A stretch of DNA of 64,000 nt from Vampirovibrio chlorellavorus (GCA_903866275.1 CAIPMU010000003.1:1805-65804); one strand, 5' to 3'. Counted from the first letter of the stretch, positions 34,519-47,112 are shown. The notes: generated by a model from the sequence alone, not told the origin. Translations and numbers: made by a program.

Positions 34519-35817
34519 CTATTGCCTCGCGACTGCAGTGCGATTGATGGGCAGCGTTTGATTATTTTGGTGCAGCCGTTGCGCCAGTTTGCGCGAGAAA
34601 TATTCAGCCCCGGTGGGGGTTAGGTGTCGGGGATCCGCGAAGAATCCGTCCGTGCTGAGGGCTTGACTGGCTGGCGTCTCCGCATTGAGATCAATGAAGG
34701 GTGTCGGGTGTTTGCGCAATAACTGGCGCAATCCGGCCTGATAATTGGCGTGCAGCGGGGAGTGATTAAACTCCTGTAAAAAGGCGGGGTGATTGGGCCA
34801 GCTCACCAGCACCACGGGAATACCTTGTTGCTGGCAGTACGTTAATAAGGTGTCCAGTTTGTCAAAATAGACGGCGGGTTGTTGATCGATATAATATTTG
34901 CGCGCTTCGTTCACGCTGCGGCGAATACCTGCCGGGGTCGTCATATGCGGGCTTTGGGGCTTGGGATACCAGCCTTGCGCCATCCATGCGGGGGGGGGTG
35001 AACTTTCCGGGGATTCGTCACTTTCGGCGGCCGGGCTGTTTTCCCCGGCATCCGCAACGTCGCTGGTTTCGAGGGATGTATTGGGATTGGCCTCGGCCGG
35101 GGCAATGAATCGCTGAAAAATCCCTACGCGATCCAGACTGATTTTTTCGCTGATTTTTTTGATCACGTTCACGGGAGAAAACGTATAGCGATACTGCCGC
35201 AAGCTGCTCAAACCGGACAGCAGAAGCTCCTGTTTCACGTTATCGGCCAACAAGGGATGGCTCAAATAGGTCGGCGTGAGCTTGGGGCTTTGCTCAATCA
35301 GGGTGCGGTAATACAGCGCCGGGAGAAAATACAGGGCCGCGTTTTTCTCCTGAATGGAAGGGCTGAGCTCCACCAGCACCAGTTGGGGCTTGCCGTAGCG
35401 GTGCTGGTGATATTGCAGATACGCCTGCATAATATCGTAGCGATTATTGGGCAAGCCTAAGTTAAAACTGCGAAGTGTGTCTGGGTGTGGGATGAAGGCG
35501 GCCTGCTCTAATGCTTTGTCAAACACAGCGGGGATAAATCCGTTGTTGGTTTGCGAGGTGCCTAAAAATAAAATATTCGGGGGCTGATTTTGCTGCGGCT
35601 TGAGCAAGGCCAGTTTGGCCGGTAAAAAATTGCCGTAGCTAAAGTTAAATTTAGCGTTCAAAGGGGAATAGGTCACGCCCAATGAGAAACAGATATTAAA
35701 CAGCGCAAACCCTAAAACACCCAACGTAATAGGGCGAAACGCCTTATTAAGCAGGGTTTGCGAGAGAAGTTTCTGTATTTTTAGTAGAGGGCTCAATAAG
35801 GCGCGTAATGCAGGCAT
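34519..35817 (-). CDS. SGNH/AlgJ-DltD-like partner protein of the MBOAT acyltransferase (putative polysaccharide O-acylation accessory protein)
   Basis: N-terminal TM; ILFLGTSQTNNGF (GDS-like block I) and C-terminal FADPRHLTPTGAEYF (DxxH-like block V). Immediately downstream of the MBOAT gene. Contains a C9 homopolymer that encodes PPP. Confidence 0.5.
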   Translation of the reverse strand: MPALRALLSPLLKIQKLLSQTLLNKAFRPITLGVLGFALFNICFSLGVTYSPLNAKFNFSYGNFLPAKLALLKPQQNQPPNILFLGTSQTNNGFIPAVFDKALEQAAFIPHPDTLRSFNLGLPNNRYDIMQAYLQYHQHRYGKPQLVLVELSPSIQEKNAALYFLPALYYRTLIEQSPKLTPTYLSHPLLADNVKQELLLSGLSSLRQYRYTFSPVNVIKKISEKISLDRVGIFQRFIAPAEANPNTSLETSDVADAGENSPAAESDESPESSPPPAWMAQGWYPKPQSPHMTTPAGIRRSVNEARKYYIDQQPAVYFDKLDTLLTYCQQQGIPVVLVSWPNHPAFLQEFNHSPLHANYQAGLRQLLRKHPTPFIDLNAETPASQALSTDGFFADPRHLTPTGAEYFSRKLAQRLHQNNQTLPINRTAVARQ

Positions 35818-35828
35818 GTGAAAGACTC

Positions 35829-37265
35829 TTAAAACTGGAAGTAAATAAATTGCTGAGAGGACTGCCCGCCGAGGGTAATCAGGCAGTATAAAAAGACGCC
35901 GTAGGCGGTGGCAATGCCCGCTTCTCGCCAGAGGGGATGGTGCAGTCGTGGTTGAAAATAGCGGATCAGGGCATGCAGGCCCAGAAACGTGATGACGATC
36001 AACAGGGCGCTCTCCGGGGATAGAAAGTTGTGCCCGGCTTCGACGGTTCCAATGGGTTCACTGAGGCGCTGCCAGTGAAAGGGGTTGAGCATTGCGTTTA
36101 ACATGTGCAGGGCATCGTCAAAGGTTTTGGCCCGGAAAAAGACGCGGGTGAAACACACGGCATGAAAGGTGATGAGCATGGCCATTAATTCCGGGAGGAA
36201 GCGGGTGATTTTGAAATGGCGGGCCGCTTTAAAGAGGCAGAGGAACAAACCGTTCAGGAGGCCCCAAATCACAAAGTTCCAGCTGGCCCCGTGCCACAGG
36301 CCCCCCAGGCCCATGGTGATAAACAGATTGCGGTAGGTGTTAAATCGCCCGTTGCGGTTGCCCCCCAGCGGGATATACAAATAATCCCGCAGCCAGCGAG
36401 AGAGTGAAATGTGCCAGCGCTGCCAGAATTCCGACATGTTGCGGGCAAAGTAGGGCGCGTTAAAGTTTTCGGGGAGGGTGTAGCCCAGCAACAACGCAGA
36501 GCCTTGGGCCATCAGGGTGTATCCGAAAAAATCGCAGAAGAGCTGGATACTGAAGCTGTAAACTGCAATCCAGGAGGTGTTAAAGGCTTGCAGGTGGGGC
36601 TGGCCAAAGATCAGATCTACATAGACGGCCAACAGGTCAGCCACGAAGACCTTCAGGAAAAAGCCGGTGCAAAAACGGTGAATCCCCTGTGCGAGGCGGT
36701 TGATGTCGAAGCGGGGGGCATGATCAAACTGATGCAGCAATTCGCTGGCCCGCACAATGGGCCCGGCGATCAGGTGTGGGAAAAACGCCACATAGGCCGC
36801 AAAGCGGACAAAGCTGGGGTCGGGCTGCTCCTTGCCCCGGTAGACATCGATGAGGTAGCTAATCAGGACGAAATTGGTAAAGGAGATGGCCAGCGGCAGG
36901 AAAATATCAAATTGCACTGCATGCCCCGGCCAATGGAAAAATCGGAGAATAGCCTCGCTGGTTTGAGCCAAAAAGTTGGCGTACTTGAAATAACCCAGCA
37001 GGCAGAGTTCCGTGGTGATGCCAAAGATCAGGATGCGCTGTTTGAACTGCGGCCAGCGAATCATGGCACGGCTCAGCCAGTAGAAGTAGAAGGAATCCAG
37101 CAGGATCAATGGGCCGTAGAGCAAACCATGCGGAGGGCTCCAGCACATGTAGAATACATAACTGGCCACCAGCAGGCAAGCCACCCGGAAGCGGGTAGGC
37201 AGATTCCAGTAGAGGAGCACCACTACGGCCAGAAAGATGAGATACAGGGGGCTGGTAAAAAGCAT
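35829..37265 (-). CDS. MBOAT-family membrane-bound O-acyltransferase (AlgI/DltB-like)
   Basis: Polytopic protein; conserved His region WQRWHISLSRWLRDYLYIPLGGNR, typical of AlgI/DltB. Confidence 0.85.
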   Translation of the reverse strand: MLFTSPLYLIFLAVVVLLYWNLPTRFRVACLLVASYVFYMCWSPPHGLLYGPLILLDSFYFYWLSRAMIRWPQFKQRILIFGITTELCLLGYFKYANFLAQTSEAILRFFHWPGHAVQFDIFLPLAISFTNFVLISYLIDVYRGKEQPDPSFVRFAAYVAFFPHLIAGPIVRASELLHQFDHAPRFDINRLAQGIHRFCTGFFLKVFVADLLAVYVDLIFGQPHLQAFNTSWIAVYSFSIQLFCDFFGYTLMAQGSALLLGYTLPENFNAPYFARNMSEFWQRWHISLSRWLRDYLYIPLGGNRNGRFNTYRNLFITMGLGGLWHGASWNFVIWGLLNGLFLCLFKAARHFKITRFLPELMAMLITFHAVCFTRVFFRAKTFDDALHMLNAMLNPFHWQRLSEPIGTVEAGHNFLSPESALLIVITFLGLHALIRYFQPRLHHPLWREAGIATAYGVFLYCLITLGGQSSQQFIYFQF

Positions 37266-37704
37266 GAGGTGTCGCGGTTAGGGGGAGGGCTATCGATATG
37301 GGGGGGTAATGCTTTAAACACAAAGGCGTTTCAGAATTGCGGCAAACGGTCAGGTGCTGCCAGTCATACGCCACGGATGTTGCTGGAATAAGTCTGGAAT
37401 TCGGGATGCCTTTGGGATTGTGTCAAAAACAGGGCTTAGCAGACATTACCTGCCTGACTAAGGCCTTGGAATGAGAACGCTGGGAACACGATACAGCCAT
37501 GTTGAATAGAGTGAGGAAAAAAGCCGCTCCATGACAACAGTGCGCCCCCAATCGGAAGCGCACTGTCGCCAGGTGGTTTGATGTTATTGTCAGGAGTTGA
37601 AGTTAAAATGAATCGTTTTGAGTTGAATGGTTAGTTTGACGTTCGCTGGCGCAATGGAGAGCGCCTCCCCCTTTGAGTTTGTCGGGTAGTGAGTGTGCTT
37701 TGGT

Positions 37705-37806
37705 TTAATCGATTCGCTGCGGGATCTTGCAGGTTTCATAGACCATCAGTGAGCCGCCGAGAATGGAGCCGCAGGTCACCAGAAGCGCAGCCAGATAAAA
37801 TTCCAT
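37705..37806 (-). CDS. Small hydrophobic peptide (33 aa), unannotated sORF
   Basis: ATG preceded by AGGAGGG at 6-nt spacing; peptide MEFYLAALLVTCGSILGGSLMVYETCKIPQRID has a single TM; lies in a ~900-bp region otherwise free of ORFs. Confidence 0.35.
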   Translation of the reverse strand: MEFYLAALLVTCGSILGGSLMVYETCKIPQRID

Positions 37807-38198
37807 CGGAACCCTCCTCATTTCCCATCTTTCTTTGGTAACATCCCCGATTGATTGAAGATACTCATAGTATAACTTTTTTTAACAAACTCAACTAGTC
37901 CCATTCAGGCTGATCTTTTCAATTGTTTTTTCTTTAATGCTTTCAGGTGACGCTTTGCTTGGGGTGTGTTTCACAGGTTGTCTGAAATGCCAATCAATTG
38001 GCTGAATGAAACTCTGAGAAATCTCAGGAAGCACTTCGTATCCTGAAGGACTTAAAAGGCGTTGGAAGTCATTTTTGGTCTGGTCGATTGCTTGTTCTCG
38101 GCTCTGGTATGCCTCTAGAGATTACACGGTTGGTCGATTGAGTGAGGGCTCGCTTTTGGGTACGATGGGGCCCATAGTTACACAGACGAGGTTTGCAC

Positions 38199-39097: not shown

Positions 39098-40840
39098 GTG
39101 TGGAAAGTGGTGGTTATGCGAGTGAAACATCAATTTTTGCCTCCCTGTCGGCTTCCTGTCCAACGGCAAGCGCCCAGGGTCTGGTTGTTGGCTTTGGGCC
39201 TGGTCTTGATGCCCGCCTTTGCCGCGCCCGTCTGGGCCGAAAATTTTAATCTCGAAAGCGTGGATTTTGCGAACACCGATGACGGCATGCGTATTATTTT
39301 GCATACGGGTAGCATTGTGCCGGTGCAGAAAGTCTTGATCTCCGATAAAAAGGTCATTCTGGACATCGATCAGGTGAATGCCGGTGAAACGGTGCGGACC
39401 AATTTTGCCGGGGCCAGCAACGTGAGCCACGTGATTATGCAACCCCTGAACGATCATAAGATTCGGATGGTGATTCGCGGGGAAGATTTGAGCTCACCGA
39501 GCGTGGCCTTTTATGGGGCCGGTACAGCCGAGGGCAATGGCTTGAGCCCTGAGGCCTCCTCCCGGTTGGCGCTGGAAACCAGTGCCGCATTGCATCGCCA
39601 GCAGGAGGCGGGTATGCAATCCGCCGTGAATGCGGGCAAGCTGTCTAGCGGTGATAGCCCCGCCGTCGATAATCCGTCGCTTCAGGATGAGCCCATCGCC
39701 CTGGGTGGTTTCGTGGAAACCCCTTCCGGGCATGGCGCTCACGGATCGGATAATCTGGAGTTGAAGCCCGCTGAAACCGGTCCGCTGGCCTTGCAAAAAG
39801 GGTATTCAGCCAATGCGGGCAATGAGTTTTTGACTCAAATGACCACGGGCAAGTGGGACAAGTATATTCCCTTCGGGTTATTGGGCTTGTTCGTTCTGGG
39901 GGCAGGCGCGTTCGTGCGTCACAAACTGGTTCAGTTGCGTCCGGTGGATAGTGCATTTGAAGAATTAATGGAACAGGAGCAGCAGGCACCCACGTCCGGC
40001 AAGCGTTCCAGCTTCCGGGAGATGGCTGACGCTTACCGCAACAAGCATGAGGATAAACGGGCCGATAATGGCCAGCGCAAGGCCAACGCCGATAGCATGA
40101 TTGGCCTGAGTGGGCTCAATCAGGCCGAGATGGCCGAGCCAGCGTTCGATGAGATCAATGAATTAGTAACGCCTGCGCCACGTCCCCAGCCCAATCGGGC
40201 TGACTTCGGGGATGAACTGCCTCCGGCTAACACCCTGGAACAGATTCTGGCAGCCATGCAAGCGGCCAATCAGCCTAAAAAGCCTATGGGTGTGCCAGCC
40301 CCCAAAAAGCAGGCCGTGAGCCAGTATATGCAGGCTCAGGCGCCCACGGTCAAGGGCAAGCCAAAAAACCGTCAGGCCGCCGATGAGGTGATGTTGCAAG
40401 AGATGAAACGCGCGCAGGCGGCTCAGCAGCAACTGCAACAGCAGGTTCGCCAGCAGGCTCAAAATCAGAACGTGGACAAGCCGGGCTATACGCCAGTGAA
40501 CCGGGCCGCTGCCGCGAAAAAAGCGGTGAAAGCGCCTAATTTTCAGACGATACCACCGGGCAATGCGGTGAACGCCAAAAATCCCATTACCCCTGCCCGG
40601 ACGGCCAATGCCAATCCGGCCCCGGCGCAGCGCGGCTATACGACCGCGCCCCCCCGAGCCAATCTGTCTAATGCCTCGCCCAATCCGATGCCCAAGGGTC
40701 AGGCCAATCTGCCCGGTAATCCGGAGGTTCTGAACTTTCTGCGTAACGTGGCCGAGCTGATGGAAAAGGACGGCAAGGGCGACATCGCCAAAAGCATTCA
40801 CAAGAACCTGGGAACGCGCAATCTGGGACTCACCCAATAG
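39098..40840 (+). CDS. AMIN-domain protein with central TM and low-complexity Q/A/P-rich C-terminal half
   Basis: Signal peptide (LLALGLVLMPAFAAPVWA); AMIN-like beta domain NLESVDFANTDDGMRIILHTGSIVPVQKVLISDKKVILDIDQVN; TM at ~260; start may be the ATG at 39116. Confidence 0.5.
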   Translation: MWKVVVMRVKHQFLPPCRLPVQRQAPRVWLLALGLVLMPAFAAPVWAENFNLESVDFANTDDGMRIILHTGSIVPVQKVLISDKKVILDIDQVNAGETVRTNFAGASNVSHVIMQPLNDHKIRMVIRGEDLSSPSVAFYGAGTAEGNGLSPEASSRLALETSAALHRQQEAGMQSAVNAGKLSSGDSPAVDNPSLQDEPIALGGFVETPSGHGAHGSDNLELKPAETGPLALQKGYSANAGNEFLTQMTTGKWDKYIPFGLLGLFVLGAGAFVRHKLVQLRPVDSAFEELMEQEQQAPTSGKRSSFREMADAYRNKHEDKRADNGQRKANADSMIGLSGLNQAEMAEPAFDEINELVTPAPRPQPNRADFGDELPPANTLEQILAAMQAANQPKKPMGVPAPKKQAVSQYMQAQAPTVKGKPKNRQAADEVMLQEMKRAQAAQQQLQQQVRQQAQNQNVDKPGYTPVNRAAAAKKAVKAPNFQTIPPGNAVNAKNPITPARTANANPAPAQRGYTTAPPRANLSNASPNPMPKGQANLPGNPEVLNFLRNVAELMEKDGKGDIAKSIHKNLGTRNLGLTQ

Positions 40841-45853: not shown

Positions 45854-46300
45854 TTGAGCGCCATGACCCCACCGACCTCTGCCCAAACCCTGCAACTCCT
45901 GCACACCCTCGATCTCGACGTGAACGTGTTCGATACCGATTGCTTCGGCGTGATGTGGCATGGTGCTTACACCAAATGGATGGAAATGGGCCGGGTAAAG
46001 CTCTTTGAATCCCAGGGGCTTTTTCTCTCTAAGCCCAACGACCCGGATGGTTATATTTACCCCGTGGTCGAGCAGAACCTGAAGTACAAGACCGCCGCCC
46101 CCTATGGCGACAAGCTGACCATGACTACTCGTTTGGCGATTGATGGCTACAAGCTGCTCTTTTATCAGCATTTCCGCAGCCACAACACCGATAAAATCAC
46201 GCTGGAAGCCGTAACCACCGTGGTGGTGCTGGATACCCAGTGGAAACTCCAGCGCCGCCTGCCCGAAGGCATTGTGCAGACTTTGGGTTTAACCCAATAG
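45854..46300 (+). CDS. Acyl-CoA thioesterase, 4HBT/YbgC-like hotdog fold
   Basis: VFDTDCFGVMWHGAYTKWMEMGR (catalytic D/H region typical of YbgC/FadM). Confidence 0.75.
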   Translation: MSAMTPPTSAQTLQLLHTLDLDVNVFDTDCFGVMWHGAYTKWMEMGRVKLFESQGLFLSKPNDPDGYIYPVVEQNLKYKTAAPYGDKLTMTTRLAIDGYKLLFYQHFRSHNTDKITLEAVTTVVVLDTQWKLQRRLPEGIVQTLGLTQ

Positions 46301-46382
46301 CGTTGATACCCATGAACGTAAGTCATTACTGAATGAGACAAACTGGGATATTAAGCACCATGAATGACTTATTCGTGAGGAC

Positions 46383-46992
46383 TTACCAATGAAACCAAGG
46401 GGGATCAATCGATGATGGGTTCCAAGTCCCGCCACTACATACCGTATTGGGTGCAAGCGAGTTAAAGGTTTTAAGGGACCCATTGTAATAAAGTGCAAAC
46501 CACACGGCCTTGCCAGGGCCATTGGTGGTGCCGTCTGTCACTTTGCCATCCGGATCAAGGGCAAACCAAATATTATTGGTTGTGTTTGTACCCGAAAAAG
46601 AATACCGTCTAAAGAAAAGTAAGGCTCCATTATGGAATCTGACACAGGGTTCTAGACTAGTGCAAGTCAGAGTTCCCACCGTGAAGGTATCATCCAAAGT
46701 CGAACTGGTGTCATATTTAACGTAGTTAAGATAGGGGATTAAGTCAGGGGACTTGGTCGCTGTCGTCACCAAGCCCGAATTCTGATGTTGTTGATAGGCT
46801 GTCGTGATAATGCCCCCAACCTCTTTAGCAATCGCGTTATATTTCTCGTCTTGTGAGGTATAGATGATTTTGGGGAGGGTAAATGTGGCAATCACACCCA
46901 GAATGGCTAAAGCGATGAGCACTTCAGCCAGCGTGAAGCCTTTGTATCCCTTGAACGCGGGTATGATCGGCAGGCGTAAAATTCTAGCCAAC
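46383..46992 (-). CDS. Prepilin-type N-terminal cleavage/methylation domain protein (type IV pilin or pseudopilin-like)
   Basis: ...AFKGYKG|FTLAEVLIALAILGVIATF (G-F-T-L-x-E class III signal). ORF extends upstream to 47033 through a C13 tract (MRQAMSPPPPEIS-); the conservative start MLARIL at 46992 is used here. Confidence 0.65.
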
Positions 46993-47112
46993 ATGGAGAT
47001 CTCGGGGGGGGGGGGGCTCATCGCTTGCCTCATCTGATTGGGTATTTCTTATTTATTGTATCGGAAGAGGGGCTGAAAAACTTGAGTGATTCATGACCGC
47101 TGTGAAGTTGTA

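Follow-up and report, generated by a model that had tools for sequence, protein, structure and literature searches.

A conserved MBOAT and SGNH-like gene pair of Vampirovibrio chlorellavorus and the cytosine runs in and upstream of it

The MBOAT protein PatA features an FxYxxF motif whose role was shown experimentally: its Tyr is auto-acetylated from acetyl-CoA, and the acetylated shuttle peptide is the donor for the SGNH protein PatB (PMC12148441). DltB is devoid of this motif and uses the microprotein DltX instead (PMC12148441). A second body of work concerns homopolymeric-tract phase variation, which is well documented in other bacteria; the known contingency tracts are longer than chance would have them, polymorphic between strains or species, and often 5'-proximal (PMC1891110, PMC2831843). 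Here, a two-gene locus of Vampirovibrio chlorellavorus is described that touches both subjects. It lies within a stretch of 64,000 nucleotides (GCA_903866275.1 CAIPMU010000003.1:1805-65804)—the window, in whose positions all coordinates are given—and consists of an MBOAT gene and a gene for an SGNH-like partner, with a run of nine cytosines (C9) inside the partner gene and a run of seven (C7) upstream of the MBOAT gene. The locus probably represents an ordinary, constitutively intact MBOAT–SGNH envelope acylation module whose C9 and C7 runs are incidental and not evolved switches.

The MBOAT and its SGNH-like partner

The domains, motifs, and invariant residues of the module, the adjacency of its genes, and its conservation are established at the level of sequence. 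The MBOAT acyltransferase gene occupies 35829–37265 on the minus strand and encodes 478 residues with a Pfam MBOAT match of 2.9e-34. The partner gene follows head to tail on the same strand at 34519–35817, after a gap of 11 nucleotides between the two open reading frames (ORFs), and encodes a membrane-anchored, SGNH-like protein of 432 residues that belongs to the DUF1574/LB_356 family. Both genes are adjacent in all 17 orthologous loci with enough sequence, which supports the O-acylation pair proposed by an earlier, sequence-only reading of this DNA; the coordinates and the anatomy that it gave for the genes and the tracts are correct. Relatives keep the gene order lipocalin(s), microprotein, MBOAT, partner, (Pirin), and NDH-2, and homologues of the partner are found in assemblies of Vampirovibrio, Vampirovibrionales, and Melainabacteria, which points to a Vampirovibrio-like source that metagenomes alone have revealed. 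Conservation is much higher in the MBOAT than in the partner, with identities among orthologues of 64 to 96% and 43 to 88%, respectively. As judged by the gene calls of the neighborhood, no polysaccharide synthase or Dlt gene is adjacent to the pair, and neither DltA nor DltC is among the genes called in roughly 11 to 21 kb of DNA around the locus. A search at Rfam gathering thresholds yielded two tRNAs only in the whole window and nothing in the 930-nucleotide region upstream of the MBOAT gene.

The nearest solved structures to the MBOAT are those of DltB (6bug and 8jem, E 3e-26, residues 125–347). The catalytic-type His of the protein is His285, within WHISLSRWLRDY. The C terminus is formed by the hexapeptide FIYFQF (residues 473–478, encoded at 35832–35849 on the minus strand), which reads as the FxYxxF acyl-shuttle motif and is the protein end in 17 of 17 orthologous MBOATs; Tyr475 within it is the predicted acyl carrier. 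The protein had been labeled AlgI/DltB-like. Its assignment to the MBOATs and to the AlgI type holds, and the likeness to DltB falls away with the FIYFQF tail and with a score of 158 bits against the NCBIfam DltB equivalog TIGR04091, for which the cut-off is 375. Judged by these features, the MBOAT belongs to the PatA/AlgI type, has the shuttle motif fused to its C terminus, and is not DltB-like.

The family of the partner is set by PF27429 LB_356, which is precomputed for the exact protein, and LB_356/DUF1574 domains are carried by the partner and its 68 homologues. PF07611 DUF1574 is matched by 24 of 27 family members (best 3.1e-09), and a local Pfam copy gives no DUF1574 match at E ≤ 0.01 for the partner of the window itself. 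In the same local search, the partner features sub-threshold matches to Lipase_GDSL_2 and ALGX only; the latter covers residues 330–426 with 21.1 bits against a cut-off of 26.5, which leaves the protein outside AlgX/AlgJ. Among the 27 homologues, weak matches occur to ALGX in six and to DltD in four, and none of them, nor the partner itself, matches DUF459/PatB at E ≤ 0.01. Hence, of the label SGNH/AlgJ-DltD-like that the gene had been given, the SGNH-like part stands, and membership in AlgJ, AlgX, DltD, or PatB gives way to the DUF1574/LB_356 family. DUF1574 is a family of the SGNH clan without a characterized member or structure (PMC9487903). A literature search on LB_356 returned unrelated papers only, and for Vampirovibrio in combination with O-acetylation no paper was found.

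Ser88 (in GTSQT), Asp395, and His398 (both in DPRH) are invariant across the 27 homologues and form the predicted SGNH catalytic triad of the partner. The AlphaFold2 (AF2) model, with a mean predicted local distance difference test (pLDDT) score of 79.6, features N-terminal helices and an alpha/beta core. A Foldseek comparison with the PDB gives weak matches only (E ≥ 2.7e-3, none ≤ 0.001), many of which are SGNH esterases; the best full-length match is DltD 3bma at rank 4, with E 5e-3 and TM-scores of 0.37 to 0.40. These whole-chain TM-scores are low because the model includes the membrane helices and a disordered linker. A sequence profile of the partner family likewise finds only marginal matches in the PDB (the SGNH esterase Iah1 at E 0.074 and CgnD at E 0.34), and PatB 7TJB, among the solved structures, has no sequence match to the family at E ≤ 1.

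The linker of the partner is an observation in its own right. Residues ~227–276 form a disordered, acidic, Ser/Pro-rich insertion that separates the N- and C-terminal halves of the catalytic domain, and pLDDT stays below 50 at residues 227–270 in the AF2 model. Nowhere does the family vary more in length and sequence: the members span 374 to 468 residues in total, and the homologues do not allow an alignment of the linker columns.

The PatA/PatB and DltB/DltX/DltD systems suggest, by analogy, a course of acyl transfer. The MBOAT would take an acyl group—acetyl being the most likely, with acetyl-CoA of the cytoplasm as its source—and would use His285 to load it onto Tyr475 of FIYFQF at the outer face of the membrane. 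The co-transcribed, anchored SGNH-like partner would then receive the acyl group on Ser88, which forms the triad together with Asp395 and His398, and would pass it on to an envelope polymer—peptidoglycan or another cell-envelope glycan being a guess at the acceptor.

The C9 run within the partner gene

The C9 run lies at 34990–34998 on the minus strand and appears as G9 on the plus strand. It reads in frame as CCC CCC CCC and encodes Pro274–276 (context ...SPESSPPPAWMAQGW / ...SPESSPPPAWMAQGWYPK), which confirms the earlier description of a G9 that is C9 on the coding strand of the SGNH gene. A slip of ±1 within the run would lead to a product of 291 or 318 residues that is truncated before Asp395 and His398. 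This invites the alternative that C9 is a recently evolved contingency locus, in which slipped-strand mispairing toggles between a full-length partner (C9) and a truncated one (C8 or C10) and thereby switches acylation on or off in subpopulations of one lineage. Against such a switch speaks the position of the run, which is found at 63% of the gene, not near its 5' end, at the C-terminal edge of the disordered, hypervariable, and neutral-looking linker.

Comparison with relatives also speaks against it: neither the sister lineage nor any of 19 orthologues has the run. The sister lineage (88% amino acid and about 90% nucleotide identity, same synteny) carries TCA CTG CCT CCG, with Leu-Pro-Pro at the C9 site, in contigs from two samples. 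Distant orthologues with PPP(A/P)W use mixed codons such as CCC CCA CCC, CCG CCG CCT CCT, or CCC CCA CCG. No run at the site exceeds C6 among the 19 orthologues, and their genes are free of G/C runs above 7 throughout. Orthologues in which the segment is encoded by nonrepetitive codons were what the sequence-only reading had itself named as implying no selection for mutability, and this is what the PPP/LPP segment features. A local excess of substitutions at C9 was considered as a sign of selection and rejected: 4.6% of the 3-codon windows of the partner gene are at least as diverged, all of them in variable segments.

The length of C9 is within chance, and it is built from the preferred codon. 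The window has a G+C content of 53.9%, with G making up 29% of the plus strand, and was compared with 100 dinucleotide-preserving shuffles of itself. G/C 7-mers occur 14 times against 20.5 ± 4.9 in the shuffles, 95 of 100 of which reach 14. G/C 9-mers occur six times against 1.58 ± 1.45; five of the six stem from an unrelated G13 at 47004–47016, and G9 adds a single match, about the expected number. CCC is the preferred Pro codon (43%, as counted in 47 long ORFs of the window), and codon choice alone would place a C9 at ~8% of PPP sites. An apparent excess of all-CCC PPP sites (two of three in the window) was rejected, the sample being too small and one of the sites being the C13 region, which is possibly noncoding. 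Over the 20.5 kb that the window and the sister lineage have in common, the window contains 24, 6, 2, and 1 G/C runs of lengths 5, 6, 7, and 9, and the sister has 36 and 5 runs of lengths 5 and 6, so that the numbers of short runs are similar. The C9 and C7 runs are best explained by the preference for C-rich codons together with fast, unconstrained evolution; both sit at sites of low constraint—C9 in the disordered linker and C7 in an unconserved leader.

Two further runs were seen in the window. A C7 at 40649–40655 lies inside the gene of an AMIN-domain protein (39098–40840, plus strand) as ACC GCG CCC CCC CGA and illustrates how ordinary such coding runs are here. At 24426–24440, T7 directly followed by G8 comes just after a GAACCTC...GAGGTTC hairpin in an intergenic region, an arrangement that resembles an intrinsic terminator whose G8 tail is unusual.

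Finally, C9 has a single form across the contigs on record, and its counts equal those of the flanking genes. The exact 432-residue partner occurs on 8 contigs as a one-member cluster, and the MBOAT likewise on 8 contigs; the partner, the MBOAT, and the Pirin gene each map to the same 14 index blocks, 1 in the 20–50 kb and 13 in the 50–200 kb class. Among the homologues, there is no frameshifted or in-frame length variant of the partner and no near-identical N- or C-terminal fragment. In addition, the independent scaffold BUCK21-1 agrees with the window in every position over 11,299 bp, a stretch that holds G9, G7, and the C7 at 40649. Going by these identical counts, the lack of fragments, and the identical scaffold, no assembly on record has a shifted or resized tract. 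A search of JGI metagenome contigs with the tract flanks and a variable gap (GAAAGTTCA-N5-14-GCATGGATGGCGCAAGGCTGGTA) gave 0 matches, the species being present only in NCBI, ENA, and Logan assemblies. The phase variation that had been read into the tracts is therefore not supported at the assembly level, where tract length is the same throughout.

Several points weigh against an ordinary module with incidental runs. The C9 run is slippage-prone by nature, and the truncated products give it, as far as the reading frame tells, the possible anatomy of an on/off switch. Its 4 substitutions in 9 nucleotides against the sister lineage place it in the top 5% of 3-codon windows. A longer and possibly variable C13 in the same genome, which appears different by 1 nucleotide in 2 of 8 contigs, indicates that the organism may use such tracts, and homopolymeric-tract phase variation is documented elsewhere (PMC1891110, PMC2831843). 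The assemblies are consensus sequences, perhaps not from independent populations, and minority variants are invisible in them. The DUF1574/LB_356 family has no biochemical precedent (PMC9487903), and the acyl group and the acceptor are inferred. Weighed with the position, the chance length, the codon usage of relatives, and the uniform assemblies, a contingency locus at C9 is unlikely.

The C13 run, the C7 run, and the region upstream of the MBOAT

The G13 at 47004–47016 (C13 on the coding strand), which is far longer than chance predicts, marks the 5' end of a gene for a type IV pilin-like protein (46383–47033, minus strand). The product carries an N_methyl motif, ...KG|FTLAEVLIALA. Either the run belongs to an N-terminal extension, where it reads in frame as SPPPPE, or it lies 9 nucleotides upstream of an ATG at 46994. 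A 212-residue form that reads through C13 is found on 6 contigs and 9 blocks, and a 203-residue form that starts at the downstream ATG on 2 contigs and 4 blocks; the gap to the upstream gene is 118 nucleotides in the contigs with the 203-residue form versus 119. This suggests that C13 differs by 1 nucleotide in 2 of 8 contigs, with a homopolymer miscall as a further possibility. Since this likely difference is seen in the same set of contigs, the data could reveal common tract variation, and none is seen at C9; C13 is the better candidate for phase variation than the C9/C7 module. In the sister lineage, synteny breaks beside a 4HBT thioesterase gene (L027:1-870 versus about 46300–47100 of the window). 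The pilin-like gene and C13 are absent at that place, where an unrelated ORF of 263 residues lies on the other strand instead, and the 21 kb of the sister contain no G/C run of at least 7.

C9, C13, and perhaps C7 could also be read jointly, as a set of G/C-tract contingency loci that the lineage has recently gained. This is very unlikely. If it were true, a predatory or epibiotic melainabacterium would vary its surface acylation and its pili within a population, and contingency loci would extend to an uncultured predatory lineage. The MBOAT–SGNH module would then be the first known to be phase-variable, and Melainabacteria would have their first described set of such loci.

The C7 run lies at 37300–37306 on the minus strand (G7 on the plus strand), 35 to 41 nucleotides upstream of the MBOAT ATG, and is judged incidental. 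The region around it features a bipartite element, GCAATT-N17-TTAAAG (37312–37340, minus strand), in a conserved upstream block. The pattern of GCAATT, a spacer of 17 or 18 nucleotides, and an A/T-rich hexamer occurs once within the 450 nucleotides upstream of the MBOAT in 14 of 17 orthologous loci, 66 to 184 nucleotides from the ATG. The element is conserved amid diverged surroundings, and it may be a promoter or a site for a regulator, in either case of an unfamiliar type.

A change in C7 length might tune transcription or translation of the operon, with the run acting as a promoter spacer or an element of the 5' leader. Its place in the only noncoding stretch before the operon, directly after a conserved element that may be a promoter, fits such a role. 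The run, however, starts 5 nucleotides downstream of the element, which is the sole conserved upstream feature, and lies outside its two halves, so that a change in length would leave the spacer unaltered if the element is the promoter. A promoter/terminator scan, whose counts equal the expectation from shuffles, found no sigma-70-like site that spans G7. Of the earlier statement that a G7 sits in the operon promoter, the position at 37300–37306, ~35 nucleotides upstream of the MBOAT start, is accurate, and the promoter tract is not upheld. In addition, a run of seven bases is short for slippage at high frequency, and the window has no more 7-mers than chance predicts. TCTCCTCCCCC replaces C7 in the sister lineage, and in all 17 orthologues the 110 nucleotides upstream of the MBOAT are free of G/C runs of at least 6. 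C7 is of equal length in the only independent assembly for which DNA was available. Tuning by C7 is, on balance, highly improbable.

That the runs are mere homopolymer miscalls—short-read assemblies are error-prone at homopolymers, and the window stems from a metagenome-assembled contig—has a negligible probability and is excluded in practice because of the intact frame and the identical independent assemblies: C9 preserves the 432-residue frame, with the downstream 156 residues aligning with all homologues, the exact partner recurs on 8 to 10 contigs from NCBI, ENA, and Logan assemblies, and an independent scaffold matches the window in each base over 11.3 kb.

Further upstream on the same strand, at 37705–37821, a microprotein gene encodes 38 residues (33 from the second Met), MEFYLAALLVTCGSILGGSLMVYETCKIPQRID, predicted as a single helix. 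At least six lineages have the microprotein upstream of their MBOAT, with 41 to 95% identity; tblastn finds it there in L003, L004, L009, L011, and L012/13, and it is called as a 33-residue gene in two lineages. A role as DltX was considered and rejected, the microprotein being devoid of FxYxxF and of a conserved Tyr. Its relationship to the module is unproven.

Comparison with known systems

The main value of the ordinary-module reading is that a false lead is cleared: in a genome of 54% G+C that prefers CCC for Pro, short G/C runs should not be taken for switches unless enrichment, conservation, or polymorphism speaks for it. What remains of interest is the uncharacterized family of the partner and, separate from the module, the C13 at the pilin-like gene. 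In Vampirovibrionales, a strongly conserved FxYxxF MBOAT is paired with a DUF1574/LB_356 partner. Since that family is without a characterized member, the pair is a clean candidate for assigning a function to it, for example O-acetylation of peptidoglycan or another envelope glycan.

The known contingency loci—the fim promoters and tcfA/bapC of Bordetella, the capsule and lipooligosaccharide genes of Campylobacter, and inlA of Listeria—resemble C9 in that a run is carried by a gene for surface modification and a slip would truncate the product. C9 differs in being within chance, monomorphic, private to its lineage, and located at 63% of the gene. Enrichment, polymorphism at the assembly level, and conservation, by which contingency loci stand out, are absent from both C9 and C7.

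DUF1574 (PF07611)/LB_356 (PF27429) is best known from Leptospira. The partner is a member of this family, which supplies a name and not a function.

AlgI/AlgJ/AlgX of the alginate system and the WssH/WssI type of the cellulose system, which serve exopolysaccharide O-acetylation, share with the locus the general type of MBOAT and an SGNH-like periplasmic partner, and the partner has weak similarity to ALGX. In contrast to these systems, neither alginate or cellulose synthase genes nor AlgF are present in the neighborhood here. Compared with AlgX, the nucleophile Ser of the partner precedes Asp and His, as in classical SGNH enzymes.

The DltB/DltX/DltD system for D-alanylation of teichoic acids resembles the locus in several respects: among solved MBOATs, DltB comes nearest, the partner finds its best full-length structural match in DltD, and a microprotein gene is conserved upstream. 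However, the MBOAT here carries the shuttle motif itself and reaches 158 of the 375 bits of the DltB model, the microprotein has no FxYxxF, and DltA and DltC are missing from the genes called around the locus. Teichoic acids are not expected in an organism of the Gram-negative type.

PatA/PatB, the peptidoglycan O-acetyltransferase pair of Gram-negative bacteria such as Neisseria and Campylobacter, is, like the present locus, a stand-alone two-gene pair without adjacent polysaccharide synthase genes. In both, the MBOAT features the invariant His and a C-terminal FxYxxF—FIYANF in NgPatA and FIYFQF here—and the partner, anchored at its N terminus, is an extracytoplasmic SGNH protein in which the residues follow the order Ser...Asp-x-x-His. 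They differ in that the partner here lies outside PatB/DUF459 and that no ape-type esterase gene is nearby. As judged by its motifs, the pair carries the features of the MBOAT–SGNH class: the His, FxYxxF, and an adjacent, anchored SGNH-like partner with a predicted triad.

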